Origin: Mytilus edulis
Lineage: Eukaryota
DNA length: 64,000 bases
Assembly (NCBI RefSeq): GCF_963676685.1
Contig: NC_092349.1
Span: 63,326,924-63,390,923, forward strand
Direction of reading: 5' to 3'
The notes below the pieces were generated by a model that saw only the letters and a program-made list of their open reading frames with translations, ran no database searches and was not told the DNA's origin. Positions within the stretch are counted from its first letter, which is position 1. The number at the start of each line of letters is the position of its first letter. Shown one piece after another: positions 9,037-64,000 of the stretch. The position numbers and the translations under genes were made by a program.

Positions 9037-10087
9037 GGTTACACTGTTTTTTTACTCTATATGTATCTGAAATTTTACAGTATAAAATTATCTTTATATA
9101 TATCAATACATGTTTTTGCATTGACACAAGTCTGTACCACTAGTTCAATGGCTCAGACTAGTAAAATTTCATTCGGACTAGTAAGTTTTTGCAAAAAAAT
9201 GTCAGAATATTTTTCTTTTGGACTAGTACATGTAGTTGAAAAAGTTTTTGGTGCCGACTGTGGCATTATCATGATTATTTTATCTTCTGATCCAGTGAGA
9301 TAAGATGAGATGAGATGAGACATATGTAACTGTGATCTATGCACTTCTTACCTCTGCAGATATAAAAGAATTGTGTGCTTTTTGAATGTGAATAAAATGC
9401 TGCCCAATGCAATCAATTGTTGTCTTTTGTAGCTACATGTTTATCTGCAATAATCATGGTAATGTTCTCTCTTCAAGCTATTAATCAATATACATGTTCA
9501 TGTATCAGGGAAATTGATTAGATTGACTTAGACAACTTGCATCTCAGGACAAGTTCTCAAGTTATCATTACTTAAGTATACATGTATGTCATGTATCTGG
9601 GTTTATTTTAGTACAAATATTAGGCATTTTGTGTAGACCTACATCATTTTTACATCTGAATATGTATGCAACTTGCATTGTGCAAATCTTTATATTTTAA
9701 ACAAAATGCCAACTAAAAAATTGTGCAAATCAATGTGAATATACTTAACATGCTAAAGTTATTATCTGGAAACCATCCGATTTTGGACGACGATGACGCC
9801 GACGACGATGACGACGTGATACCAATATACGACCAAAAAATTTTTTGCAGTCCTATAAAAATAACAACGCCAAGAAATAGCACTTTTATGAAAGTGGCGT
9901 TGAAGCACCAACCAATCAATCAATCAATCTGATGAGTAAAACCTTTTTCAAATGATTCATGTGATTTGTATTGTTTGGTTTTTACATGCTAGTTGTGCTG
10001 TTACATCATTGTTCAAGTTTGGTTAGACACTAGAACCTTAGATTACCTGCAAAATTAAATTGTTTAATCCTATATACATATCTATAA

Positions 10088-13659: not shown

Positions 13660-16325
13660 TTTAGCTCACCTGGCCCAAAGGGCCAAGTGAGCTTTTCCCA
13701 TCATTTGGCGTCCGTCGTCGTTAACTTTTACAAAAATCTTCTCCTCTGAAACTACTGGGCCAAATTAAACCAAACTTGGCCACAATCATCATTGGGGTAT
13801 CTAGTTTAAAAAATGTGTGGCGTGACCTGGCCAACCAACCAAGATGGCCGCCATGGCTTAAAATAGAACATAGGGGTAAAATGCATTTTTTGGCTTATAA
13901 CTCAAAAACCAAAGCATTTAGAGCAAATCTGACATGGGGTAAAATTGTTTATCAGGTCAAGATCTTTCTGTCCTCAAATTTTCAGATGAATCCGACAACC
14001 CTTTGTTGGGTTGCTGCCCCTGAATTGGTAATTTTAGAGATTTTTTGCTGTTTTTATACGACCGCAAAAATTTTAATTTTTTGGTCGTATATTGCTATCA
14101 CGTTGGCGTCGTCGTCGTCGTCCGAATACTTTTAGTTTTCGCACTCTAACATTAGTAAAAGTGAATAGAAATCAATGAAATTTTAACACAAGGTTTATGA
14201 CCACAAAAGGAAGGTTTGGATTGATTTTGGGAGTTTTGGTCCCAACATTTTAGGAATTAGGGGCCAAAAAGGGCCCAAATAAGCATTTTCTTGGTTTTCG
14301 CACTATAACTTTAGTTTAAGTAAATAGAAATCTATGAAATTTTGACACAAGGTTTATGACCACAAATGGAAGGTTGGGATTGATTTTGGGAGTTTTGGTT
14401 CCAACAGTTTAGGAATTAAGGGCCAAAAAAGGGCCCAAATAAGCATTATTCTTGGTTTTCGCACAATAACTTTAGTATAAGTAAATAGAAATCAATGAAA
14501 TTTTAACACAAGGTTTATGACCACAAAAGGAAGGTTGGGATTGAATTTTGGAGATGAGGTCACAACAGTTTATGAATTAGGGGCCAAAAAGGGGCCCAAA
14601 TAAGCATTATTTTTGGTTTTTGCACCATAACTTTAGTATAAGTAAATAGAAATCTATGAAATTTAAACACAAGGTTTATGACCATAAAAGGAAGGTTGGG
14701 TTTGATTTTGGGAGTTTTGGTCCTAACAGTTTAGGAATAAGGGGCCCAAAGGGTCCAAAATTGAACTTTGTGTGATTTCATCAAAAATTGAATAATTGGG
14801 GTTCTTTGATATGCCGAATCTAACTATGTATGTAGATTCTTAATTTTTGGTCCCGTTTTCAAATTGGTGTACATTAAGGTCCAAAGGGTCCAAAATTAAA
14901 CTTAGTTTGATTTTAACAAAAATTGAATCCTTGGGGTTCTTTGATATGCTGAATTTAAAAATGTACTTAGATTTTTAATTATTGGCCTAGTTTTCAAGTT
15001 GGTCCAAATGGGGGTCCAAAATTAAACTTTGTTTGATTTCATCAAAAATTGAATAAATGGGTTCTTTGATATGCCAAATCTAACTGTGTATGTAGATTCT
15101 TAATTTTTGGTCCAGTTTTCAAATTGGTCTACATTAAGGTCCAAAGGGTCCAAAATTAAACTAAGTTTGATTTTAACAAAAATTAAATTCTTGGGCTTAT
15201 TTGATATGCTTGATATGCATATGTAAATATGTACTTTGATTTTTGATTATGGGCCCAGTTTTCAAGTTGGATCAGGATTCCATATCAAGTATTGTGCAAT
15301 AGCAAGAAATTTTCAATTGCACAGTATTGCACAATAGCAAGAAATATCTAATTGCACAAAATTGCACAATATTGTGCAATAGCAATTAATTTTCAATTGG
15401 AGTTATCTTTCTTTGTATAGAATAGTAGTTGATAATATATGTTGGAAATTTGCCAGACATGACTATGATGTCATTTTCTATTTTTATTTGCCAATAACTT
15501 TATGTAAATAACTTCATTGGAAATTTGCCAATATAAAATGTTGCTGATGAAGCTTTTTTTTCCTTATCTTATCTAAAATGTTTTTAGATAATGTATGTTG
15601 GACATTTGCCAGACATGACTATGATGTCATTTTCTATTTTTATTTGCCAATAACTTTATGTAAATAACTTCATTGGAAATTTGCCAATATAAAATGTTGC
15701 TGATGAAGTTTTTTTTATTGTTTTATACAATAAACAATGTATATTCACTTTTACTACCAACCAATCTTTACCATTCAGTGATAACAAGCACTTTATTTTA
15801 CATTTTAATATTTTATGATGTATTTAAAAGAGTAGTTGTTGTTGCAAACTCCATTAGAAATTTGAATTGATATCAGTTTTGGAAAAAGGGAAACGGGGAT
15901 GTGAAAAAAAAGGGGGGGGGGGGGGTTAAATTTTTCTCATTTCAGATTTCATAAATAAAAAGAAAATTTCTTCAAACATTTTTTTGAGAGGATTAATATT
16001 CAACAGCATAGTGAATTGCTCAAAGGCAAAAAAAAACTTTTAAGTTCATTAGACCACATTCATTCTGTGTCAGAAACCTATGCTGTGTCAACTTTTTAAT
16101 TTTAGATTTAAAAAGTTTGAAGAAGAAATCTTTAATTGATTTGTAAAATCTTGACATTTGTTTTGTGTAAAAAAAACCCATGTAATGTCAAAAATTTGAT
16201 CACAATCCAAATTCAGAGCTGTATCACGCTTGAATGTTTTGTCCATACTTGCCCCAACTGTTCAGGGTTCGACCTCTGCGGTCGTATAAAGCTGCGCCCT
16301 GCGGAGCACCTGGTTGGTTATTATC
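13660..16325 (+). repeat. Composite macro-repeat: terminal hairpin, 490-bp unit, (CGT)n, 165-bp satellite x4, 120-bp satellite x4, 37-bp and 170-bp tandems, poly-G element
   Basis: The hairpin is agctcacctggccc-aaa-gggccaagtgagct at 13663-13693. Sub-arrays lie at 14140-14760, 14755-15235, 15290-15400, 15410-15720 and 15860-16325. Paralogous partial copies are at 18290-19600, 32440-33690 and 47150-48260. Confidence 0.8.
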
Positions 16326-23012: not shown

Positions 23013-23640
23013 CTTGTCATCGCAACTCCTCTCAAACCACACAACAGAATTTCACGAAACCTTTTCAGATAATAAGAACATACTATGTAGTTGTGCATAT
23101 CGACGGGAAATTGCGATTCAATTTTTTTTCTAGGAGTTACGCCCCTTTGAACTTATTTACTTTAATGTACTACTGCAACAGTTTGTCATCGCAACTCCTC
23201 TCAAACCACACAACAGAATTTCACGAAACCTTTTCAGATAATAAGGACATACTATGTAGTTGTGCATATCAACGGGAAATTGCGATTCAATTTTTTTTCT
23301 AGGAGTTACGCCCCTTTGAACTTATTTACTTTAATGTACTACTGTAACAGTTTGTCATCGCAACTCCTCTCAAACCACCAAACAGAATTTCACGAAACCT
23401 TTTCAGATAATAAGGACATACTATGTAGTTGTGCACATCGACAGGAAATTGCGATTCAATTTTTTTTCTAGGAGTTACGCCCCTTTGAACTTATTTACTT
23501 TAATGTACTACTGCAACAGTTTGTCATCGCAACTCCTTTGAAACCACACAACAGAATTTCATGAAACTTTGTAGATAATAAGGACATACTACGTAGATGT
23601 GCATATCGACAGGATATTATGATTCAATTCAAAAAAAGGG
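23013..23640 (+). repeat. 169-bp tandem repeat, about 3.7 copies, in intron 1 of gene B
   Basis: tgtcatcgcaactcctctcaaaccacacaacagaatttcacgaaacc… recurs at 23014, 23183, 23352 and 23521. Track ORFs 22825..23471 are artefacts of the repeat. Confidence 0.85.
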
Positions 23641-24572: not shown

Positions 24573-24771
24573 ATAAAAGATTTCAGTGACCTGATGTTTA
24601 GGATGCATGAGGAATGTATAGCAAAGGGAGACAAACTATATGTGTTTTGGTTGTTTCGATTCCAACCAATTATTATCCTGGCACATCCAGACACCATGAA
24701 AGTAGTAATGAGATCTAATGCTCCAAAGACAATGATTGGTCCAGGGTATCCTTTTCTTGTTCCATGGCTAG
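24573..24771 (+). CDS. CYP4-like gene B, exon 2 (IKDFSDLMFRMHEECIAKGDKLYVFWLFRFQPIIILAHPDTMKVVMRSNAPKTMIGPGYPFLVPWLG)
   Basis: Acceptor ttattttcag, donor g|gtgagt. Phase 0 to 1. Confidence 0.85.
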
Positions 24772-24856
24772 GTGAGTTGTAATGAGATATAATGCTCCAA
24801 AGACAATGATAGGTCCAGGATATCCTTTTCTTGTTCCATGGCTAGGTAAGTTGTGA
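24709..24856 (+). repeat. 74-bp tandem duplication covering the 3' end of gene B exon 2 and its splice donor
   Basis: atgagatctaatgctccaaagacaatgattggtccagggtatccttttcttgttccatggctaggtgagttgta is repeated directly with 6 mismatches. Confidence 0.85.
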
Positions 24857-32439: not shown

Positions 32440-33690
32440 TGGAAACCTTTGCTCTATGAGTGGTATTTTGTGGTCGTATATTGGTATGACGTTGTCGTCT
32501 TCGTCATCCGAAGACACATTGGTTTTCGCACAATATCTTGAGTTTAAGTTAAATGGATCTCTATGAAATTTTACCATAAAGTTCAATACCACAAAAGGAA
32601 GGTTGGGATTGATTTTGGGGGTTATGGTACTAACAGTTAAGGAATTAGGGGCCAAAAATAAGCATTTTTGTAACTTCCAGACAATAACTTGTGTGTTAGT
32701 GTATGGATCTCTCTGACACTGTCCCACAAGGTTCCATATCTCAAAGGGAATGCTGGGATTGATTTTGGGGGTAATTACCTCAAAATTTTAAGAGCTAAGG
32801 GCCAAAAAAAGGGGCAAAAAACATGCATTTTTCTAGTTTCATGACAATAACTTCTGTGTAAATGTATGGATCGTTCTGAAATTGTACTACAAGGTTCCAT
32901 ATCACAAAGGGAAAGCTGGAATTTAGTTTGGGGATAATTGCCCAAAACGTTCAGGAATTAGGGGCCAAAAAGGGGCCAAAAATAAGCATTTTTCTAGTTT
33001 CCAGACAATAACTTGTGTTTAAGTGTACGAATCTCTCTGAAATAGTAGTGCAAGGTACCATACCACAAAGGGAAGGCTGGGATTAATTTTGGGGGTAATG
33101 CCTCAAAATTTTAGGAATTAGGGGCCAAAAAGGGGCAAAAACAAGAATTTTTCTAGTTTCAGGACAATAACTTGTGTGTAAGTGTATGGATCTTTATAAA
33201 ATTGTTCTACAAGGTTCAATACCATAAAGGGAAAGCTGGGTTTGAGTTTGGGGGTAATTGCCCTAAAGGTTTAGGAATTTGGGGCCAAAAAACAAGCATT
33301 TTTCTAGTTTCCAGACAATAACTTGTGTTCAAGTGTATGGATCTCTCTGAAATTGTACTGCAAGGTACCATACCACAAAGGAAGGCTTGGATTGAGTTTG
33401 GGGTGATGAATCATAAGGGGGTTCAAAAAATTTGGTTGGGGGATTTTTTTTTTTTTTTTTCTTTTTTTTTCCTTTTTGGATATTGGACGATAATAGGTAA
33501 ATTAAAAAAAAATTAGTTCTTAGACCACATTCATTCTGTGTCAGAAACCTATGCTGTGTCAAATATTTAATCACAATCCAAATTCAGAGCTGTATCAAGC
33601 TTAAATGTTGTGTCCATACTTGCCCCAACTGTTCAGGGTTCAACCTCTGCAGTCGTATCAAGCTGCACCCAGCGGAGCATTTTATTGTGA
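32440..33690 (+). repeat. Partial copy of the composite macro-repeat: (CGT)n junction, 160-bp satellite x about 5.5, poly-T/poly-G element
   Basis: ggtcgtatattggtatgacgttgtcgtcttcgtc… is followed by units ttttcgcac…aggaattaggggccaaaaa. 33480-33690 matches 16000-16325. Lies in intron 6 of gene B. Confidence 0.8.
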
Positions 33691-36558: not shown

Positions 36559-38259
36559 TTAAGATTGGGATTGAGGAACAGCAGTATTAAATCTGCCCGT
36601 TCTGTCAATGAAATGTGCCACTGTTTGTAATTTGGCTTTTGTCTCTTCTGTGTTTTCGCCGTCCAGTCTTGTCAGCATAGTAGCTAAATTCAAGTTTCTG
36701 ACCCCGACCTCTTTGGATATTTGGTGTAGCATATCTTCTCGTTCTTTTTCATAGTAGGGACACTCCAGAAGGAAATGTTGAGGCGTTTCAGGTGCTCCAC
36801 AGTTGCATGACTCTATGGCGTTGGTTTGGCCTACTCGGTTCTTGTAGTAATTCAGTTCTGTATAGCCAGTTCTTAGTTGGGCGAATATACTGAAATGTCT
36901 CTTAGTTGGGAAATCATACATAATTGAGTGTTTTGTAGTTGGTATTTTTTCATAAAGGTCCCTGCCTCTCTCAGATATTTCCCATCTTCTCTGCCATTTA
37001 TTTCCTGTACTTTTGTATGCTGCTTGTTTGACGTCCTGTAGTGTTATGACGTTATTTTCCGGTGGTAATTCTTTTGCTTCCTCTGCCGCTGTTTTTGCAA
37101 GGATGTCAGCCTCATCATTACCAACTATGTTGGCATGTCCTGGTGTCCATGCTACAATTACATTGAGTCCTTTTTGCCTAAGATGTTCAATATTTTCTTT
37201 TATTTCTCTTATTATGGAGATGTAGCTGTTTGGGGCCCAGTTCAGTGTAAGTAATCCCACGGCGCTTTGACTGTCAGAGAAAATTTTGATTCTTTGTATT
37301 GCATTGTAAATGTTTTCTGTAATGCAGTATTCTAGGACCATGAGAATTGCTATGAGTTCCGCTAGAAGGATGGATCCTCTTTGTGCCACAGGTCTATGTA
37401 ATCTGGTAGCAGGTTTAATGTGTTCAGCATAGATAATTGCACCTGCTCCACAGGGTCCTGGGTTCCCTAGGCATGATCCATCTGTAAACGATATTGCTTG
37501 TTCTTGTGTGCAGTCTCCCATGAGTTGGTTAATGGTTTCCTGGCAAAGTTCCTGTTGCTCATTTGTCCTTGATTTTGAGTTGCCTAGTTGACTCCAATAT
37601 AAAGGTTTTGATTGAGTCATTTGAGTTTCTCCCAGTCTGTAGGTAAACTCTGGTTCTATAAGATTGATGTTTATCTTTGTCTGTTTTTCCATTTCTGCTG
37701 CTTGGCTTAGTGCTTTGCCCATTGGTGTTGGATACTTGTCATATGCGTCATGTTCTTCATACCTCACAAGTTGCTGTTTGATTGGTTCCTGTGCAGATTT
37801 GGATTTAATCTTTGCAATCTCTTTAATGGCTATTTGTTCTAGTCTCAGGTCTATTGGCATAACTCCTGATTCCACTTCTAGTGCTTCTCTGCCAGATGTT
37901 GTAGGCATATCCATGCATAGGATAAGTGCTTTTCTCTGTACTCTGTCAAGTTTTTGCAGGTCTTTTGGTTCTGCTATTTGCCAGGCCGGACTACAATATT
38001 CCATGACTGATCTGACTAGACTGTAGTATAATTGTAATAACTTTTCTGTCTTTAATTTGCTGATCTGTCGCACTTCTCTCAGAATAGTTAAGTTACGGTT
38101 TGCTCTCTTTTCGATTGCATCAATGTGTTTACTGAAGGTCATTTTCTCGTCCATAATGATTCCAAGAAGCTTTGGTGTTGAGTTGTATTTCAGTTCTTTA
38201 CCTTGAATCAAAATGCGTTTGTCCTCTTCATCGATGTTTTTTTTTTTGAAAAGATGCAT
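36559..38259 (-). CDS. LINE ORF2, C-terminal part (RT thumb, RNase H, Cys-rich tail), out of frame with the N-terminal part
   Basis: 566-aa ORF. The RNase H domain includes FTDGSCLGNPGPCGAGAIIYAEH, with the DE..D residues present. The C-terminal tail CNCGAPETPQHFLLECPYYEKER is typical of LINE ORF2 ends. The ORF overlaps the 751-aa ORF around the poly-A tract at 38226-38236. Confidence 0.8.
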   Translation of the reverse strand: MHLFKKKNIDEEDKRILIQGKELKYNSTPKLLGIIMDEKMTFSKHIDAIEKRANRNLTILREVRQISKLKTEKLLQLYYSLVRSVMEYCSPAWQIAEPKDLQKLDRVQRKALILCMDMPTTSGREALEVESGVMPIDLRLEQIAIKEIAKIKSKSAQEPIKQQLVRYEEHDAYDKYPTPMGKALSQAAEMEKQTKININLIEPEFTYRLGETQMTQSKPLYWSQLGNSKSRTNEQQELCQETINQLMGDCTQEQAISFTDGSCLGNPGPCGAGAIIYAEHIKPATRLHRPVAQRGSILLAELIAILMVLEYCITENIYNAIQRIKIFSDSQSAVGLLTLNWAPNSYISIIREIKENIEHLRQKGLNVIVAWTPGHANIVGNDEADILAKTAAEEAKELPPENNVITLQDVKQAAYKSTGNKWQRRWEISERGRDLYEKIPTTKHSIMYDFPTKRHFSIFAQLRTGYTELNYYKNRVGQTNAIESCNCGAPETPQHFLLECPYYEKEREDMLHQISKEVGVRNLNLATMLTRLDGENTEETKAKLQTVAHFIDRTGRFNTAVPQSQS

Positions 38260-40463
38260 ATTTCAGTTTTGTCTAGGTTGATGTTTACTCTCCACTTTTG
38301 AGTCCATTTCACTGCCTTTGTGATGTCATCCTTCATTCTATCTTTGAGTTCCAGTATCTGGTCTGGTTGAGCCGTTTGCCAGAGTGTTCCGTCATCAGCA
38401 AATTTGGTGTAGTCTCCTAGAATGTCTCCCAGTAGGTCGTTGATAAAGATGTTGAATAATGTGGGAGCCAGAACTGATCCTTGTGGTAGCCCTATCTTTG
38501 TTTCAAATTCTTCACCTACATAGTTTTCGAAGATGCATCTTGCCATTCTGTTATTTAGGAAATCTTTAATCCAGGCCCATGTTTTTCCTCTTATACCCAA
38601 ATGGTGTAGTTTTACTAGTAGTCCCTCTCGCCAGATTGAATCGTATGCCTTTTCAAGATCAATAAGACATGCAAGGGTGATTTCTCCTTTATTGAATTTT
38701 TCTATTGTGTTCTGAATAAACCTGATCAGGCAGTTTGATGTTGAGTGTTTTTTCCTGAATCCTTCTTGTTTTTCTTCTATAAGCTTCATTCCTTCTATGA
38801 ACGCTGCCAGCCTGTTAAGAACAATTCTTTCAGTAATTTTGCACATGACACTGGTTAGACTTATTGGTCGGTATGATGATGGTGAGTAGTAATTGGTTTT
38901 TCCTTGTTTCCTCAGGAATTTTATGTTTGCTGTCTTCCATTCCTGTGGTAGCCGGCCATGTTTTAGTGTGAGGTTCACCATAGTTCGTATTGCTTCTATG
39001 AGGTTTTCTCCGGCAAACTTAAATAGTTCTGGGAAGTGGCCGTCAGCTCCAGGCGATTTACCTATTTCTAGTAGGTATATTGCTGCCTCAACTTCATCCG
39101 TGGTAACCTCATAGTCCAATTTATGTTCTCTTTTTGTCAATCTTTTCTCTAATTCACATATTCTTTTGTATTCCTCTTGAGTCTGTTTGTAGAACTCTTC
39201 GTCAAATTCATCAGTCTTTAGATGCTTACCCTCAAAAAATGTTTTTTGCAAAATTTTACATTTTTCTTGATTTGAAAAGGCTGGTGGGTCGTCTTGGTCT
39301 ATTAGTGGTAGGATGGTATTGCAATCTTTCTTTTTGGTCAATTTCTTATAAGTTGTCCATACCTCTTTTGAGTTTCTTGATGTATTGATCTGGTCTACTA
39401 GGTGTTCACTCCAATCATTCATAGCTTTTTCTTTCTCATTTTCAAACTTTTCTTCTGCTGTAACAAGGGCTTCTTTATTTTGTGGGATGTTTCTCTTCCT
39501 ATATTGCCTTTGTTTATAGTTTAAGTTTTTCTTTGCCTGATTAACATCATAATTCCACCATGGAGGTTTAGTTGATTTTTTTTCTTTCATCTCTTTTTGG
39601 CAGATAACTTCCTGCATCGTTTTATCAATAGCCGCTTTAAGTGATTGGTATACTTCATCTACATTATCATTGCTTGGATTGTTCAGTAGCCATTCTTCCA
39701 TGTTCTTTTCTGCCTGTTCTTTCCATTTATTCCAGTCTACTTTGTTAATTTGCCATACTTTCCTTTTTGTTAAGTTGTTTTGTTCCTTTTTGCATACATC
39801 AAGTTCTGTTAGTATACATATATGGTCAGATCGTATGTTTTCATGGACTAGTGTTGAACAGTTGTGCACTTTACTAATAGTGCTGGGTGTTATAATGACT
39901 AAGTCAATGACACTTTTGGTATTTCGTCTTGTAGGCTGGCCATCATTAACGCACAGCATGTCTGTTTTGGTCAAGAAGTTTTCAATTATTTCTCCTGCCT
40001 TGTTTGTCTTGTCATTGTTCCATTCTAAGCTTTTAGCATTAAGGTCTCCCATTATAATCAGTTCATGCTTGTTGTTTTGTTGTACCTTTTGAACTTTGGT
40101 AGTTAGTTCTTCAAGTTGTTTTGTTTCTTCTGGTGGAATGTAGGGTACTAGCAGATTGAATATGATGTTGTTATCTGTGTGTATGGTAGCTGCTACACTT
40201 TCATAGTTTGTGTCTTCAAAGTCTGTGCATTTAGTGACTGTGAAATTGGTTTTGTGAGTGTTGATGCAAATAGCCACGCCCCCGCCTTTTCTTCCTTTAC
40301 GTGGTTTATCAAACACTTGCCAGTCTAAAAAAGTTAGTTTTTTATTCTCTTCTTGGTGTGTTTCATTTAAACAAACAATATCTACATCATAACTATTTAC
40401 AATATGTACAAGTTGCTGATAGGCCGTACTAATGGCCTGTGCATTCAGGAAGAGGAGTTTCAT
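38208..40463 (-). CDS. LINE ORF2, N-terminal part (APE-type endonuclease plus reverse transcriptase)
   Basis: 751-aa ORF. The N-terminus LNAQAISTAYQQL…VDIVCLNETH is an exo/endo/phosphatase fold. RT motifs follow, including LIDLEKAYDSI and FADDGTLW. The ORF terminates inside an A11 run. Confidence 0.8.
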   Translation of the reverse strand: MKLLFLNAQAISTAYQQLVHIVNSYDVDIVCLNETHQEENKKLTFLDWQVFDKPRKGRKGGGVAICINTHKTNFTVTKCTDFEDTNYESVAATIHTDNNIIFNLLVPYIPPEETKQLEELTTKVQKVQQNNKHELIIMGDLNAKSLEWNNDKTNKAGEIIENFLTKTDMLCVNDGQPTRRNTKSVIDLVIITPSTISKVHNCSTLVHENIRSDHICILTELDVCKKEQNNLTKRKVWQINKVDWNKWKEQAEKNMEEWLLNNPSNDNVDEVYQSLKAAIDKTMQEVICQKEMKEKKSTKPPWWNYDVNQAKKNLNYKQRQYRKRNIPQNKEALVTAEEKFENEKEKAMNDWSEHLVDQINTSRNSKEVWTTYKKLTKKKDCNTILPLIDQDDPPAFSNQEKCKILQKTFFEGKHLKTDEFDEEFYKQTQEEYKRICELEKRLTKREHKLDYEVTTDEVEAAIYLLEIGKSPGADGHFPELFKFAGENLIEAIRTMVNLTLKHGRLPQEWKTANIKFLRKQGKTNYYSPSSYRPISLTSVMCKITERIVLNRLAAFIEGMKLIEEKQEGFRKKHSTSNCLIRFIQNTIEKFNKGEITLACLIDLEKAYDSIWREGLLVKLHHLGIRGKTWAWIKDFLNNRMARCIFENYVGEEFETKIGLPQGSVLAPTLFNIFINDLLGDILGDYTKFADDGTLWQTAQPDQILELKDRMKDDITKAVKWTQKWRVNINLDKTEICIFSKKKTSMKRTNAF

Positions 40464-41514
40464 TCTGTGTATTCAGTATGCTGTAAAGTCTCCTCTTGTT
40501 GATTATTTCAAGATATTTTTCGCACTTTGTTGATGTTGCTTGGTGTATGTTCCCACAGTTTACGCAACACGGGGTGTTTTTGCAGTCTTTAATCTTGCAG
40601 TTTTCTTTCCCACAGTTTGAACAGGTAGCTATGTTTAGACAGCGCTTGCCAATGTGTCCAAATTTGTTGCAATTGTAGCACCTAACAACTTTAACAGGTT
40701 GTTCTGCTTGAAATTTAGAGTATGTTGTTGTGCCGGGGTGGCAGTATCCTTTCGAGGTGATAGCTTTTTTAACTTCCCCGTGGTCAGTAAAGGTTACTTT
40801 TACTACTGGCATAAGTTTCCCAGTGTCTCTGTACTTTTTTCTCTTCACTTCTTTTATTTTATATAGGTGTGACAGATCTAATGATAGATTTTCTTCTGAT
40901 AGATGGACAGGAATATTATGTAGGTAACAAGAGTTTGTTCCGTGGTTTATAGATCTTGGTTTGTGTGCCACAGACTTTTCGCCAAATACGGATGTATTTA
41001 TTGGCCAGGATTTAATGATTATGTCCCTTGTTTTTTGGTCTTTCAGGTGGATAGCTATTCCCCCTTTTGGTAGGCTATACGCCTCTTCTATTTGATCTTC
41101 AAGTGCTTTGATTTTTGTTAACTCTTTTCTAATTGTTGTACTGTCTATAGCTGTGTTTGGCTGTTCTATGTTGTCTATAATTATAATTTTTTCTGGGTCT
41201 TTCTTCTCTCTTAGTGCCCTTGGTAGTTTTCCTTCTGTATTCTGCTTATGGTTATTACTTTGCAGATAGCCTTGTCCTATTGTTTTTGTGATCTCTAGTA
41301 ATTTATCAATTTTCTGGTCTGTTTTGGTATCACTAGTTGTTTGATGATACTCAGCTGTTAGTAGTATATATGGTTGCTTTATGATGCAGAGTGCACATGG
41401 GAATTTAATACCTGTACTTATAATTTTTCCTGCATCCTCTGTTGTGTATCCTGCACATACACTGTGCCACCACTTATTGCACAGATCGCATTCAAGCCAG
41501 GTGATTTCTTTCAC
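40429..41514 (-). CDS. LINE ORF1 gag-like protein with N-terminal PHD-type zinc finger and three CCHC zinc knuckles
   Basis: 361-aa ORF. The PHD-type finger is WLECDLCNKWWHSVCAGY…CALC. The zinc knuckles are CYNCNKFGHIGKRC, CSNCGKENCKIKDC and CCVNCGNIHQATSTKC. The ORF overlaps the ORF2 start by about 35 nt. Confidence 0.8.
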   Translation of the reverse strand: MKEITWLECDLCNKWWHSVCAGYTTEDAGKIISTGIKFPCALCIIKQPYILLTAEYHQTTSDTKTDQKIDKLLEITKTIGQGYLQSNNHKQNTEGKLPRALREKKDPEKIIIIDNIEQPNTAIDSTTIRKELTKIKALEDQIEEAYSLPKGGIAIHLKDQKTRDIIIKSWPINTSVFGEKSVAHKPRSINHGTNSCYLHNIPVHLSEENLSLDLSHLYKIKEVKRKKYRDTGKLMPVVKVTFTDHGEVKKAITSKGYCHPGTTTYSKFQAEQPVKVVRCYNCNKFGHIGKRCLNIATCSNCGKENCKIKDCKNTPCCVNCGNIHQATSTKCEKYLEIINKRRLYSILNTQNETPLPECTGH

Positions 41515-41974: not shown

Positions 41975-42830
41975 AAAACTTGGTAACGGTCAAGATCCCC
42001 CACCCTAAACCATATATATTCATGTATGGGACAATATAACAAATCATATGAAATATAGGTGGAGGTCGTGGGAGAATTTATAACGGTCGAGATCCACAAT
42101 CTTAAACAATATATATTTATGTATGGGACAATATTACAAATCAAATGAATTATAAGGGGTCCCTATGGTCACTGTACACCCTCCTGTTTGAGAACTCGGA
42201 AAAATTCCAGATCATCACCCCTTGACCATATATACTCATGTATAAGACTATATATATAATAAATCAAATGAAATATAGGGGAAGTCCCTGTGGTCACCCT
42301 ACCCCTCATGTTTAAAAACTTTGAAACAGATGGGATCCCCAACTCTAAATTAAATGAAATATAGGGGGAGTCCCTGCAGTCACCCTACCCCTCCTGATTG
42401 AGAAATTGGAAACAGTCGAGCTCCCACCTTTAAATTAAACCATATATATTCATGTATGAGAACTAATCAAATGAAATATAGGGAGAGTCCTTAGGGTCAC
42501 CCTACCCACTCCTGTTTGATAACTTAGAAACAGATGAGATCCCCACCCCTCAACCATATATATTTACGTATTGGACAATATAACAAATCAAATGAAATAT
42601 AGGGGAAGTCACTGGGGCCCCCACCCCTCCTGTTTGAAAACTTGATAACGGTCGAGATCCCCACCCATAAACCATATATATTCATGTATGGGACAATATA
42701 AAAAATCAAATGAAAAATAGGGGTAGTCCCTAGGATCACCCCACACCCTCTTGTGTGTGTTTTGAGAACTTGTAAAAGATTGAGATACCAACGCCTAAAC
42801 CATATTCATTCCTGTTTGTCATTTCAAAAA
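41975..42830 (+). repeat. About 125-bp satellite, about 6.5 copies, abutting the LINE 5' end
   Basis: Units contain ccatatatattcatgtatgggacaatataacaaatcaaatgaaatataggggaagtccct…cctgtttga. Confidence 0.85.
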
Positions 42831-43594: not shown

Positions 43595-44014
43595 GTATGG
43601 GTTAATAATGTATAATTCCCCAAATTCAACTGTACCGATGCAATGGTATTTTACTTATATTTCTAATAGCTTGTAACAGCAATGATTATGAGGCAATGCA
43701 AATCTGTAAATTAATAGATACAGTCTTTAGATTTGTGTTATGTTGTCATGGAGAGCACATACAGTTATGCATCGTATTGGGACATAAAGCATCACTTTTG
43801 AATATCATGGATTGTTGCAAATAGGACAATGGAGTTCATATGAAACATTTATTTTGTTATAAAAAAAATTAACAGATAGGTACCGCAAAGTCTTCTTGAG
43901 ACATAAGTATAAAAATGTAAAGGTAGAGATCAAGTTCTTAAATTCTTGTTTCCAAAGAAAGAAGTTGAATACTTGTTGCACATACAAATTATATTTTTTA
44001 TTTTCCATGTATAG

Positions 44015-44210
44015 TGAAGATCTATCAAAGTTGAAATACTTGACCTGTTTCCTGAAGGAAGTAATGAGAGTACATACACCGGTACCAGTCACAAATAGGA
44101 CATTAGATGAACCCATTGTTTTGGATGGGTATGACATCCCTGCTGGAGTTATGGTGGACTTTGGTATTTATCATTGTCATAATCATCCCGATGTTTGGGA
44201 AAATCCAACT
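44015..44210 (+). CDS. CYP4-like gene B, exon 9 (EDLSKLKYLTCFLKEVMRVHTPVPVTNRTLDEPIVLDGYDIPAGVMVDFGIYHCHNHPDVWENPT)
   Basis: ORF track 43896..44231. Acceptor tgtatag, donor gtaagt. 196 nt. K-helix ExxR is present. Confidence 0.85.
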
Positions 44211-44923
44211 GTAAGTTTAAGTAATAAATAACTTGATGATTAGTATTGTGCACTGTGCTTACAACATATGTTTATTTTTTATGGTTTGGTTAATATACAG
44301 AAAAAAAATTAAATTTATAACACTATCTCTGTCAGGTTTGAAGTTTTTGCACAAAAGGTAGTTTTTCCTTATTTCTGATGAAGCTCAAACTAGATGTAAA
44401 ATATCTGAAATAATATGTCCATTTTTTTTAAGCATCCTCAAATTAATTATTTCTTTTCATGTTATTTTTCAAAATATTCAAGGCAAACACAATGTAACTG
44501 ATGAAACTTGTTTTATTATTTTAAAAGCTTAATTATAAATGCAAAATTGTAAAGTTTCACACTTGTGCACCTACACTAACATTTTTTTTAAATATGTCAA
44601 TGCTTATAGTTCTTCAAAACCTTTCTAATACGATAAGTTTGAATAATGTTCTGGCAAAATTAATTAGTTGTTGCTAAAGTTATTCATTTGCAGACTATTT
44701 AAAAAGGACTTTAAAAAATACTGATCAAAGTCCAGTCCAATAGTTGTTTCCTGTCTAGATGGACAAATATTTAAAAGAAACAGCTAAGTACAGAGACTAT
44801 GATCGATTGCTATGGTCATCCTGACCCATTGATTGTGAACAATTTTTCCTAATTGAGTCAGGGCCATGGAAATGAACCACATTAGTTTCTAGTTTCTATA
44901 AAAGTTGTATATTTGATTTTCAG

Positions 44924-45006
44924 GAGTTTAAACCAGAGAGATTTGAGGGAGACAAACATCATGAGATGGATCCTTACAGCTTTACTCCATTTTCAGCTGG
45001 ACCAAG
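44924..45006 (+). CDS. CYP4-like gene B, exon 10 (EFKPERFEGDKHHEMDPYSFTPFSAGP)
   Basis: Acceptor ttttcag, donor gtaaat. 83 nt. PERF motif and the start of the haem-binding loop. Confidence 0.85.
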
Positions 45007-45340
45007 GTAAATGTGAAGTATCTCCCTTGTTTAGCAGAAAGATTTAAAGGAGCCACACATTTATGAGATGAATCCTTCTAGTTTTACTCTATTTTCTGTT
45101 GGACCAAGGAAAATATGTATTATCCCCCTTTGCTGCAGGGAGATTTGAGGGAGACATTTTTTAACTTCATGAGATGGATCCTTTTAGTTTAACTTCATGT
45201 TCTCCTGGACCAAGTTAAATATGAATTATCTCCCCTATATTGCAGGGACTAGATCACCTTGAAACAGATTCATAGTTCTACTTCATTTTTATGGAACCAG
45301 TTATCTCCCTTATAATGCAGGGAGATGAACATCATTAAGA
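45007..45340 (+). repeat. Array of about 3 decayed tandem copies of gene B exon 10 with its flanking splice signals
   Basis: Units of about 88 bp: gtaaatatgaattatctccc…tgcagggagatttgagggagaca…atgagatggatcc…ctggaccaag. All copies after the first have lost the ORF. Confidence 0.8.
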
Positions 45341-45644
45341 CAAACCCTAATACAGATAAAACACATTTAGTTTTACACCTTTTTTCGCAGACAGACATAC
45401 ATGGTCTTTCCTTATAAAATGGTTTCTCAAGCATCTCTACAAATTACTCACTTTTCTGCTGAAATGAGGATATTAAACCAGATTCATATTAATTTTAGAA
45501 CTGGCTTGCTCTCATCAGAACATATTTGAAATGTACATCAAGGCAACTTAAGCTAGTGTAATTTTTTTATAGAAAGAAAGACAATTTTAGAAATTTCCTT
45601 GTGATTGTATCTGTATTAGCTTCTTATACATATTTTTTTTTCAG

Positions 45645-45710
45645 AAATTGTATTGGATTAAATTTTGCACAGAATGAAGAGAAAGTGTTGATAGCAAGAA
45701 TTGTAGAAAG
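45645..45710 (+). CDS. CYP4-like gene B, exon 11 (RNCIGLNFAQNEEKVLIARIVE)
   Basis: Completes FSAGPRNCIG, the Cys-ligand loop. Acceptor ttttttcag, donor gtatgc. Confidence 0.85.
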
Positions 45711-46353
45711 GTATGCCATTTAAGTTGTATATACAGATTCTTGTGAATATATACCCTTTACTTTTTGCTAACAGATTCTCCAATTAACTATTTCACCAAT
45801 TTCATGTTCAATGATACATGCGTAACTCATAAAACATAAGACTTTTTTTTTTTCATTGAATTTCAAAATGAATGAAAATCAATGTTGGATCAGAATCAAT
45901 GATCAATGAGACAGCAACCCTACATCACAAATTAAACTCAACATTTAATCAATGATAAAAAAAAATGCACAGAAACCTCTTTTCAAATTACTAAGTTTCA
46001 CTTACTGTAAGTTAAGGAATTGTTGCGCTGTTTTTATTATTGCGAAAAATGTGACAGGATTATATACACAATAATTAAAAATCCCATTTTGAAATTTTTA
46101 TGGAATTTTCTCAATATTACAAAAATTAAAATCAAATTTTAGTCTAAAATGATGAAATGACAATAACAAATGCACACAATAATTTCTCATTTTACAGTCA
46201 ACATTCTGGTTTGATTGTTTTTGAGACCATAGAAAAGGAAAACATTTTAACAATTTATGATCAAAATAGTTGATGTATTTTCTTTAATCATCAATCTGAA
46301 TTATGTTATTGATTCACATCACTAAATCTTGGTATAATTTATTCTTTTTAAAG

Positions 46354-46459
46354 GTTTGAAATTTCCTTGGATCCAGACCATACAGTGATACCATTTCTTG
46401 AGGTTGTAATGAGAGCCAAAACTGGTATCATGGTCAACTTTAAACAAAGAAGCTCCTAA
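46354..46459 (+). CDS. CYP4-like gene B, exon 12 with stop (RFEISLDPDHTVIPFLEVVMRAKTGIMVNFKQRSS*)
   Basis: Acceptor tttttaaag, TAA at 46457-46459. Summed CDS is 1515 nt, giving 504 aa. Confidence 0.85.
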
Positions 46460-47149
46460 GTTACCAAGAAGATGTGAAAAGTGAAATTTAAAACAGAGGC
46501 TTCTCATAATTTATTTCATCGATTTTAATGAAAGAAATGAAGAAACATTAAGCCATTGGTATTTGGTGTTTCTAAGAATTTATGTTAGCAGACAGGACAA
46601 TATAGCACATGTTTTATTATCTTAAAAAAAAATGTTTATTTGATTAACTTAAACAATCATGTCCAATTTTTTATACATTTATTCAATGAATTGGGCAATT
46701 GGCAGATGGATAATATACAATTACTTACTGTCTTTTGATGAGGTAAATGTGTGGTTTTATTGACTTTTGAAAAACTCATATTCACTAAGGCCAACGGCCA
46801 TATTCCAAGAGAAATGTCTGTAATGCTAATTATTTATCAAAACCAATTGTATATTACATGGTTTTTTTACCAAAATTATACATGTAAAAGCATGCAATAT
46901 TTTCTGCAGTGAATATGCTAGTTTTAGCAATATGGAATAATAATAATTATCTCCCCTATATATTTTTAGATTTTTTTTTATTAGATGAAGGTTTTGCACA
47001 ACTTTCTACCTATCCTTTTTTTTTTAATTTAATTGCAACCACTGGTGCATTAGTAAAATTGAATTATCTCCGCTGTTGTAATGTTGGATTGAAATTTTGT
47101 TATGTATTTTATGCAAATTTTTTAAGTAGATTATCCATCAAGTATTATT

Positions 47150-62866: not shown

Positions 62867-62949
62867 GAGTTTAGACCAGAGAGATTTGAGGGAGACAAAC
62901 ATCATGAAATGGATCCATATAGCTTTACTCCATTTTCAGCTGGACCAAG
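62867..62949 (+). CDS. CYP4-like gene C, exon 10 (EFRPERFEGDKHHEMDPYSFTPFSAGP)
   Basis: Acceptor tttctag, donor gtaaat. 83 nt. The NCIG exon and the terminal exon are not found before 64000. Confidence 0.85.
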
Positions 62950-63700
62950 GTAAATATTTATCTGACCTTGATATGGGAGATAACTCATTACTGGTAATTA
63001 ATTTATACCTTTTTCTTCAAACTTTTTTCTTTTGGGAACAAGTTAATAAAAACTGCTTCTGTAATAAACCATGAGATTTGAGGGAAAAAGCACTATTGGA
63101 AAGATCTGTATAATAAGACATGTTTTGAGAAAAGGTGCCAAGTTATAAATGAGTTGTCTCCCATATCAATAAGGATAATCTCCCAAATTCACATCAGATC
63201 CTTGAACTTTAACTTCATTATTTGTTGGCTCCAGTAAGATATGTATCATCTCCAATATATACTGCATAAACCCCTGACTTAGATCAAGTGAATCTTACCC
63301 TGATTTTCAGCTCTTTCTTTCTCCAATACTAATCAGAGAAAGAAGAGCTTAAAACACAATACTTACTTGCCATGAAATTCTAAGCTAATAAAAAAATATT
63401 ATAATTCCAATTTTTATCTTCAAAAACCATCATGAAAGTTTTCTAAAACTTCAGTTGATTCAAGTGAAATATGAGTTATCTGCCATGTAAAGCAGAGATA
63501 TTTGTGCAAAATACTCCTTATTTGACATCTCCTTATAGTTGTGCTCCTATTTCTATGGTTAAAAGGTAAATATGAGTTAACTATTTAATAAACCAAAGAG
63601 ATATGAGGGATGCAGCTTTATGAGATGGATCCATATAGTTTGACCAAATATTTTTATTCAATAATGAGTTATCTCCCATATCAAGTATGGGATATATTGA
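62950..63700 (+). repeat. Decayed copies of gene C exon 10 plus flanks, scattered through the downstream intron
   Basis: 63060-63100 ccatgagatttgagggaaaaagcact. 63160-63260 ttgtctcccatatcaataag…ctccagtaagatatgtatcatctcc. 63597-63650 aaagagatatgagggatgcagctttatgagatggatccatatagtttgacc. 63660-63740 ttatctcccatatcaag…gtgaccaaggtaaaat. Confidence 0.7.
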
Positions 63701-64000
63701 GTTCTACACCAGGTTTTTTTTTTGTGACCAAGGTAAAATTCAATGCATTGGGATGTTGAGGAGAGAAATTTGAAAGCAAAAAATTTAAGAGCTTAGTCAC
63801 ACAATATTAAAAAAAAAAAAACAATCACACTAACTGTAGTCTGTACTCAAGGGAAATGTTCTTCCATTGGACTAAATATAAATTTCACATACTATAAATA
63901 TTACATTTAATTGAGCACACAATTACCAGTACACCCTCATAAAGAATATACATGCAATATTTACCACTAATACTAAGCAAACATCAAATAAGCAATGCAT

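Follow-up and report, generated by a model that had tools for sequence, protein, structure and literature searches.

The window, by which we mean the whole stretch of 64,000 nucleotides of Mytilus edulis DNA analysed here, contains three CYP4 genes, referred to as A, B and C. Gene A lies on the minus strand, with exons running from 9036 down to 960 and its PERF exon situated past the left end of the window. Genes B (22518-46459) and C (52767 to the right end of the window) lie on the plus strand. The assignment of the host genes to cytochrome P450 family 4 is made from sequence, on account of the PERF motif, the haem-binding signature FxxGxRxCxG and the CYP4 names borne by their nearest relatives. 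A query with the gene B protein, as assembled, gave Mytilus CYP4B1-like proteins with precomputed Pfam PF00067 as its best matches. Gene B agrees with M. edulis XP_071179999.1 at species-specific residues and is identical to it in the region of exon 10; gene C agrees in the same way with XP_071180002.1.

The exon that encodes the PERF motif and the haem loop is exon 10 of 12 in gene B. Located by tblastn and translation, it covers 83 nt (44924-45006, plus strand), encodes EFKPERFEGDKHHEMDPYSFTPFSAGP followed by the AG of an Arg codon, and ends in phase 2 at the donor AAG|GTAAAT. Exon 11 (45645-45710, plus strand; NCIGLNFAQNEEKVLIARIVE) is spliced directly to exon 10 in all known products. The two exons jointly encode EFKPERF...PFSAGPRNCIG, with the haem signature split as PFSAGPR|NCIG. 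The corresponding exon of gene C (62867-62949, plus strand) encodes EFRPERF...PFSAGP followed by AG, and differs from the gene B exon at 4 of its 83 nt. Intron 10 opens with an in-frame TAA. An alignment of nine loci shows that its start in gene B (45007-45033, plus strand) consists of the real donor GTAAAT and the motif GTGAAGTATCTCCCTTGTTTAG; this segment is the intronic portion of the repeat unit described below, and the source of its pseudo-acceptor pyrimidines. Exon 10 of gene B is both the functional parent copy and the first unit of an array.

This array consists of tandem degenerate copies of the PERF/haem-loop exon directly after exon 10, and it occupies most of intron 10 of gene B. 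A blastn search of the unit at 44934-45037 against the 64-kb window matched 45136-45245 (79%, E 4e-23) and 45035-45130 (80%, E 2e-19), as well as the gene C exon and one gene C copy. A repeat search found three in-register copies in gene B, with spacings of 102 and 106 or of 101 and 101. A profile of exon 10 plus 31 nt downstream, built from nine gene/species loci, identified four clear copies of 101-106 bp and one weak copy. The tandem arrangement proposed in the initial annotation was thus recovered by all three approaches; the array is indeed present over the span given there, 44924-45340, although it extends further, to about 45470.

The individual units of gene B, all on the plus strand, differ in how they are damaged. 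Unit 2 (45034-45130) is 85% identical to the exon consensus; its donor GT is changed to GA, a 1-nt insertion shifts its frame, and PERF is replaced by KDLK. This unit has a seemingly open frame, KDLKEPHIYEMNPSSFTLFSVGPR, whose first third is not in register and which contains no PERF. Unit 3 (45136-45244; 89% to the consensus) carries a 6-nt insertion with an in-frame TAA and a donor changed from GT to TT, and it bears the signature TTTAACTTCAT, common to the third units of genes A and C. Unit 4 (45252-45319) is truncated, with its donor region deleted, and is orthologous to a gene B unit of M. californianus (locus offset 4107) with 86% identity. Unit 5 (45319-45390), also truncated, is of the GGGAGATGAACATCAT type and resembles a 53-bp unit expanded in M. 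californianus. Finally, a last weak unit remnant, TTACTCACTTTTCTGCTGAAATGAGG, is found at 45444-45469 (nhmmer E 0.21; 72% in the repeat search). Gene C is likewise arrayed in a more decayed form, as the annotation had reported: nhmmer detects six units on the plus strand between 63066 and 63743, at 63066-63166, 63197-63258, 63438-63493 (weak), 63488-63578, 63589-63645 and 63682-63743.

The array is specific to its intron. As a control, the profile was applied to both strands of 218.6 kb of CYP4 loci; each of the 40 matches at E <= 0.01 lay on the sense strand within an intron-10 interval, with no match outside intron 10, so that the array greatly exceeds what chance would give. TRF did not report the array in the window because the copies are too diverged. 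An Rfam search of 44000-46600 gave no match at E <= 0.1, and no meaningful open reading frame was found on either strand of the array, the longest antisense one being 54 aa. The window and related loci are also rich in MITE/SINE-like repeats and in satellite repeats of 160-170 bp, some of which are inserted into the array.

The period of the array reveals what is being repeated. With 101-106 nt per period against an exon of 83 nt, only ~20 nt per unit are non-exonic. The period and the alignment of the units show that a unit runs from exon position ~4 to 83 and continues into intron positions +1 to +21, the ~20 non-exonic nucleotides being the start of intron 10, GTAAATATGAATTATCTCCCC. The 5' part of the exon, from about position 4-6 (TAAACCAGAGAGATTT), is still visible in several units of genes B and C and in several species, where it has decayed to TAAACCAAAGAGATAT, TAAAGCAGAGATATTT and similar forms; the unit alignment contains no upstream-intron sequence. 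The copies had been described as carrying the acceptor and polypyrimidine tract of the exon, which this anatomy contradicts. In the alignment, the AG of the pseudo-acceptor falls on a CCAG that lies within the exon, in the Pro-Glu (P-E) codons of PERF, and the pyrimidines before it are intron positions +14 to +22, TATCTCCCC. The 'mini-intron' from a pseudo-donor to the next CAG measures only ~31 nt. Nor is the described gtaaat donor kept in the gene B copies, where copy 2 reads AAG|GAAAAT, copy 3 reads AAG|TTAAAT and the site is deleted from copy 4. The units resemble spliceable exons because each junction reads as pyrimidines plus CAG and because the GTAAAT donor lies inside the unit, to which turnover of the units is added. 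Selection for splicing is not needed to explain these apparent splice signals.

Across the nine gene/species loci, every pseudo-unit contains stops, frameshifts or truncations, and none has an open frame of the right length. Of 28 units, 13 retain the donor GT, where 16.6 would be expected (binomial p = 0.18); of 16 units, 9 retain the pseudo-AG, where 9.5 would be expected (p = 0.80). Both expectations are taken from the mean per-base identity of 0.77. Since neither dinucleotide is retained above its neutral expectation, we rejected selective retention of the splice dinucleotides. Per-column identity is lowest at the donor GT (0.70), about 0.76 in the exon-derived columns and 0.82-0.86 in the intron-start columns. 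Alignment of the copies, which the initial annotation had named as a check, is therefore consistent with neutral decay of the splice sites.

We then compared orthologous and paralogous loci. The comparison covered gene B of M. trossulus, M. californianus and M. coruscus, gene C of M. galloprovincialis and M. californianus, gene A of M. californianus and M. galloprovincialis, a paralog D of M. californianus, which lies 24 Mb away on the same chromosome, and, from the ark clam Tegillarca granosa, one CYP4 gene; it took in neither gene C of M. coruscus nor two additional paralogs of M. edulis. The array is present in Mytilus loci of A, B and C and at the distant D locus, and the exon-10 array is absent from the T. 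granosa CYP4 gene.

Each gene B unit of M. edulis has a single counterpart in M. trossulus. Identity between the two species is 80-89% in the array, 84% in the non-array tail of intron 10 and 93% in the exon. The tail serves here as the neutral baseline, the alignment of intron 9 (67%, many indels) being too poor for this use. Inside the pseudo-exons, the two species differ by an 18-nt deletion, a 6-nt insertion and larger deletions, and a MITE of ~190 bp with perfect 21-nt inverted ends also sits within pseudo-exons. For gene C, the array is 94.5% identical to that of M. galloprovincialis, and the remainder of the intron 94.0%. We rejected the idea that selection conserves the units between species, as the array is no better conserved than other parts of the intron, and the copies show no apparent sign of purifying selection.

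Over larger distances the array has been remodelled. Units can be paired by position between species: unit 4 of M. edulis C is 94% identical to M. galloprovincialis C unit 3 and 81-83% identical to unit 7 of M. californianus C, and a B unit of M. californianus is matched at 86-89% by units 4 and 5 of M. edulis B. The number and type of units differ among M. edulis, M. trossulus, M. coruscus and M. californianus. M. californianus gene B contains a 4-kb minisatellite with ~69 copies of a 53-bp unit, ATCATGAAACATAATAATATGAATTATCTCCCCTATAATGAATGGAGATGAAC, which is a collapsed array unit built from the intron-start sequence and, from the exon, GGAGA..AACATCATGA. A few units of this 53-bp type, together with a TE insertion, are present in gene B of M. 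coruscus. In gene A of M. californianus there are five or more regular units of ~101 nt, with gtaaatatgaattatctcccctataatgcag after each of them, and unit 2 already contains an in-frame TAA. Paralog D retains short remnants that bear D-specific variants of its own intron start, and units within one array have gene-specific variants in common. Judged by these features, the array behaves as a minisatellite, with head-to-tail direct repeats, copy number and structure that vary between lineages, and homogenisation within each array. Its units likewise qualify as exon-derived pseudo-exons, being homologous to the adjacent exon, on the same strand and, in the 218.6 kb searched, confined to the flanking intron.

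The arrays of A, B and C are homologous, as indicated by a derived signature in their third units: two substitutions are common to unit 3 of all three genes, which read TTTAACTTCAT where all real exons read TTTTACTCCAT. This agrees with one half of an earlier claim, that the array predates the duplication that gave rise to B and C. The dating itself does not stand, because gene conversion among clustered paralogs means that shared presence of the array does not date it.

Over exon 10 and the nearest part of the array, the clustered paralogs are far more alike than they are elsewhere. In exon 10, M. edulis B and M. galloprovincialis A differ at 2 of 83 nt, and M. edulis B and C at 4, compared with 5-6 nt for the B orthologs and 13-16 nt for paralog D. 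At the protein level, A is about as far from B as D is (57-59% vs 62% identity). At conserved residues, B and A use identical codons in 25 of 26 cases in exon 10 and in 69 of 123 (56%) in other exons (Fisher p = 3e-5). A similar excess in exon 10 was obtained for M. edulis B-C and for M. californianus A-B and A-C (p = 0.004-0.008), and was not seen for M. californianus B-C (70% vs 66%, p = 0.42). The likeness extends into the array: unit 3 of M. californianus A is 86% identical to unit 4 of M. trossulus B, the latter being the 3' half of a third unit split by the MITE, while synonymous sites elsewhere in the genes are near saturation. The simplest reading is that gene conversion has acted among the clustered genes A, B and C over exon 10 and the nearest part of the array, and the tract appears confined to the ~83 nt of the exon and the adjoining repeat. 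The link between the tract and the intronic repeat is an observation made here, with no established mechanism behind it. The persistence of recognisable splice signals, to which the initial annotation had drawn attention, can be attributed to this putative gene conversion among paralogs. That clustered CYP4 genes evolve in concert is an earlier suggestion for molluscs (PMC3022543); our literature searches found no description of this array or of gene conversion in Mytilus CYP4 genes.

At the level of products, we compared 17 full-length proteins, drawn from the annotations of five Mytilus species (four of them RefSeq, where several transcripts each reduce to a single protein) and from four Logan-assembled proteins of 504 aa. 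The sample represents 90%-identity clusters of B and C proteins, and the Logan proteins come from transcript-sized contigs. All 17 have the canonical junction of exons 10 and 11, EFKPERF...PFSAGPRNCIG, and no isoform using an exon-10 copy occurs among these annotated or assembled full-length proteins. Such protein-level data are compatible with rare splicing into a copy or with use of a retained pseudo-donor, which counts to that extent against a wholly inert array.

Related duplications are found elsewhere. In gene B, the 3' end of exon 2 and its donor form a two-copy tandem duplication of 74 bp (24703-24850, plus strand; 92% matches in TRF, 94% in blastn). This duplication is young; the segment is single-copy by blastn in M. 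trossulus, M. coruscus and M. californianus. The M. edulis isoform X2 (404 aa) starts with MRYNAPK, and because this start is encoded only by the second copy of exon 2, the duplicated donor is used in the annotated X2 model, a model that cannot encode the N-terminus. In T. granosa CYP4, the 3' end of exon 9 and its donor are present in three copies. Duplications of an exon 3' end with its donor therefore seem common as a class.

Taken together, the array is probably an inert, exon-derived intronic minisatellite of pseudo-exons, which is a known kind of element. In this explanation, a segment of ~101-104 bp, which began a little inside the 5' end of CYP4 exon 10 and took in ~21 nt of intron 10, would have been duplicated in tandem by replication slippage or unequal exchange. 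The first copy would keep the whole exon and its native donor, leaving the mRNA unchanged, and further copies, being intronic and without a native acceptor, would be free to decay. Duplication of the complete 83-nt exon, on the other hand, would shift the frame and would be expected to be removed by selection. Units would subsequently be gained, lost, shortened and homogenised within each array, and gene conversion among A, B and C would keep exon 10 and the nearest units alike. The neutral exon-duplication satellite that had been offered as one of two possibilities is thus the one favoured by the decay of the copies, by between-species conservation no higher than in the rest of the intron and by the canonical products. 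What is specific to this case is a 5'-truncated exon-plus-donor unit that has been iterated into a minisatellite in the same intron of at least four paralogs.

Several observations fit this inert reading less well, and they are the ones that would favour a splicing-regulatory array, in which blocks of the 5' splice site plus ATGAGTTATCTCCCC act as decoy donors or as intronic enhancers or silencers. The intron-start motif ATGA(A/G)TTATCTCCCC is slightly better kept in the units than the exon-derived part (0.82-0.86 vs ~0.76). Genes A, B and D have it conserved and C retains it in part; in the other nine introns, by comparison, paralogs show no conservation over the first 30 nt. Its conservation in paralog D despite synonymous divergence of the exon is not predicted by pure neutrality. 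The exon-2 duplicate shows through isoform X2 that a downstream duplicated donor is usable. Relative to shuffled sequence, the RNA of the array also has a slightly more favourable fold (z = -2.15), in which GGGAGA is predicted to pair with UCUCCC. Variants of this proposal could involve regulated unproductive splicing, through the in-frame TAA, or support of the rather weak GTAAAT donor. However, the conservation of the motif in A, B and C is explained by a conversion tract spanning exon 10, and the excess in the units is small, with orthologous units counted more than once. The array has also been remodelled or replaced in M. californianus and M. coruscus without a change in the gene product. 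The pairing between GGGAGA and UCUCCC shows no compensatory changes, and we rejected a stem between the exonic GGGAGA and the UCUCCC at intron +16 to +21 after inspecting 20 units that cover both sides, where only one-sided, pair-breaking changes and no covariation were seen. We consider a regulatory role unlikely.

A different possibility is that the array originated independently and recurrently in each paralog, with the exon-intron junction acting as a slippage hotspot. Duplications of an exon 3' end and donor do recur, at other exons and in another bivalve family; the remnants in paralog D carry D-specific intron-start variants, and the units of each gene have gene-specific variants in common. 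Against this, the third units of A, B and C, which hold one and the same rank in their arrays, all carry the derived TTTAACTTCAT in place of TTTTACTCCAT. Likewise, the 86% identity between the third unit of M. californianus A and the fourth of M. trossulus B stands against genes that are synonymously saturated elsewhere. Separate origins are accordingly improbable. A more far-reaching proposal, which joins the regulatory and the recombinational aspects, is that selection keeps the pseudo-5' splice site plus ATGAGTTATCTCCCC both as a splicing control module for the short 83-nt haem-loop exon, by way of decoy donors or grouped intronic enhancers and perhaps with regulated unproductive splicing, and as a recombination substrate that limits conversion between the clustered genes to exon 10; we regard this as speculative and quite improbable.

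The other possibility offered in the initial annotation was a cluster of mutually exclusive or alternative exons of the Dscam type, active or remnant, in which the copies once substituted for the PERF/haem-loop exon. The copies are indeed derived from a coding exon and lie in tandem and in the same orientation in the adjacent intron of several paralogs, their junctions read as a pyrimidine tract plus CAG, and GT is kept in about half of the units. Tandem exon duplication is moreover a known source of mutually exclusive exons (PMC9013439). The unit, however, has neither the native acceptor nor the branch region, and the spacer from pseudo-donor to pseudo-acceptor is ~31 nt. In all nine loci the units carry stops, frameshifts or truncations and have lost PERF. 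The splice dinucleotides are not preferentially kept, the units show no excess of conservation between species, copy number and unit length vary freely between species, and the 17 full-length products are all canonical, none of them containing a copy. With splice sites decayed and frames broken, such a cluster is very improbable, and we do not retain this part of the annotation. Finally, capture of an exon fragment by a TE or dispersed satellite that was then inserted is hardly credible: MITE/SINE-like and 160-170-bp satellite repeats are abundant and some lie within the array, but both strands of the 218.6 kb of CYP4 loci are free of units except in intron 10, the units always set in right at the parent exon and share its orientation and register, and no terminal repeats or target-site duplications flank the array.

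The intronic minisatellite favoured here can be set beside several known systems. Minisatellites are tandem arrays of units of 10 to 100 or more bp that evolve by unequal exchange and slippage. The mussel units resemble them in their length of 53-106 bp, their head-to-tail arrangement, their variable copy number and unit length and their tolerance of TE insertions. They differ in that the first unit is a functional exon under purifying selection, which anchors the array and can reseed it.

Exon-homologous copies in flanking introns were catalogued in 2002 by Letunic, Copley and Bork, as summarised in PMC9013439, and again in 2022 by Ivanov and Pervouchine (PMC9013439). As in the remnants of tandem exon duplication, the mussel array presents same-orientation copies of a coding exon in the adjacent intron at varied stages of decay. 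Unlike those remnants, the mussel unit is 5'-truncated and includes the donor without the acceptor, and it is iterated 5-70 times, in at least four paralogs, with no coding copy among the iterations.

Within the same enzyme family, exons 3 and 4 of human CYP4F3 are duplicated and mutually exclusive, according to the account in PMC3022543, which cites Christmas et al. 2001. The statement in the initial annotation that no precedent was known in CYP4 genes is therefore too broad on that account, though the precedent concerns a different exon. CYP4F3 and the mussel genes have in common the tandem duplication of an internal exon. As that account describes them, the CYP4F3 copies are intact, have their own splice sites and tissue-specific expression, and alter substrate specificity. 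In the mussel genes, by contrast with CYP4F3 as described there, no copy is intact, none enters the known products, and the exon concerned is the one from PERF to the haem loop. Exon clusters of the Drosophila Dscam1 type, in which docking and selector RNA sequences pair (as outlined in PMC6071210 and PMC1431710), also place many tandem exon copies within one intron-sized interval. The Dscam variants are all coding; their length, phase and selector sequences are conserved, and each variant has complete splice sites. The mussel array shows nothing of the kind, and its one candidate pairing is without covariation.

The array gives no hint of new enzymology or of a new splicing mechanism. It provides instead a caution, namely that exon-like repeats with apparent splice signals can follow simply from the way a tandem duplication is built, here from the 3' part of an exon together with its donor. 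Such arrays can remain recognisable through minisatellite turnover and gene conversion, with no role in alternative splicing being needed. For the annotation of bivalve genomes, they can lead to spurious exon calls and odd isoforms, of which M. edulis X2 is an example. For the family itself, a single 83-nt exon in three clustered CYP4 genes appears to evolve in concert while the rest of the genes diverges, and the tract in which it does so abuts the repeat. The mussel CYP4 cluster may thereby offer a small natural case for how repeats shape gene-conversion tracts.

The 83-nt exon 10, which encodes the PERF/haem-loop region, is nearly identical at the nucleotide level across paralogs A, B and C, while synonymous sites in the rest of their exons are almost saturated. 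We compared the copies of genes B (window 44924-45006) and C (62867-62949) with those of gene A from M. galloprovincialis (locus L007, 11553-11635) and M. californianus (L006, 15158-15240). Exon 10 of B differs from that of A at only 2 of 83 nt; at this exon the paralogs resemble one another more closely than do the B orthologs, which show 5-6 differences. The copy in the paralog lying 24 Mb away, paralog D of M. californianus, differs at 13-16 nt. The pattern in these sequence comparisons is the signature of gene conversion confined to exon 10 and the adjoining repeat. Exon 7 is likewise unusually similar between B and C, with 83-90% of codons identical.

The start of intron 10 is also shared. 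The motif GTAAA(T/C)ATGA(A/G)TTATCTCCCC opens this intron in genes A, B (window 45007-45030) and D (L008, 11947-11975), and it is kept even in paralog D, despite the divergence of exon 10 at synonymous sites in that gene. For the nine remaining introns, the initial 30 nt showed no conservation between paralogs. In the predicted fold, the motif is able to pair with GGGAGA of the exon; a search for covariation supporting this pairing revealed none.

In gene B of M. californianus, intron 10 additionally contains a 4-kb minisatellite of ~69 copies of a 53-bp unit (L003, 20265-24265). It arose from the junction segment of the exon-10 repeat unit, which itself consists of almost all of exon 10 and the first ~21 nt of intron 10. 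M. coruscus has merely a few units of this type, and the minisatellite is an expansion specific to the M. californianus lineage.

Using TRF and blastn, we identified a second exon-derived tandem duplication in gene B, at the boundary of exon 2 and intron 2 (window 24703-24850). Its 74-bp unit combines the 3'-terminal ~68 nt of exon 2 with the donor, and the copies share 92% matches according to TRF and 94% according to blastn. The N-terminus of the M. edulis isoform X2 (XP_071180001.1, 404 aa), MRYNAPK, is encoded solely by the second copy, and the duplicated downstream donor is therefore used in an annotated model. The segment is single-copy in M. trossulus, M. coruscus and M. californianus; a M. 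galloprovincialis fragment with the end ...PWLGEL suggests that this species carries the duplication as well.

Mobile elements and satellites were also found in these loci. On the minus strand of gene B intron 7 (window 36559-41514), three long ORFs (566, 751 and 361 aa) bear the domains of an apurinic-type endonuclease, a reverse transcriptase and an RNase H. They constitute a non-LTR retrotransposon (LINE) that makes up a large share of this 9.2-kb intron. Pseudo-exon unit 3 of M. trossulus gene B is interrupted by a ~190-bp MITE (L001, 20005-20210) whose 21-nt terminal inverted repeats match perfectly (ctgtaaattcagaaattattg ... caataatttctgaatttacag); this MITE is missing from the M. edulis window. 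Introns and intergenic regions of the window also hold several tandem arrays (7-765, 14135-15270, 23014-23629, 32647-33403 and 42461-42744), whose units measure 118-358 bp and which resemble the SINE/MITE-associated satellites typical of Mytilus. The element that forms the array at 7-765 recurs in M. galloprovincialis as a 292-bp insertion within the array of gene C (L002, 12927-13217), an insertion not found in the window.

Finally, the exon-10 array is absent from the CYP4 gene of the ark clam Tegillarca granosa (L009), and the 3' part of exon 9 with its donor is present there in three tandem copies at the exon 9/intron 9 boundary (9536-9811; 84-85% identity, period ~90 nt). This triplication belongs to the same type of event, and it affects a different exon in another bivalve family.
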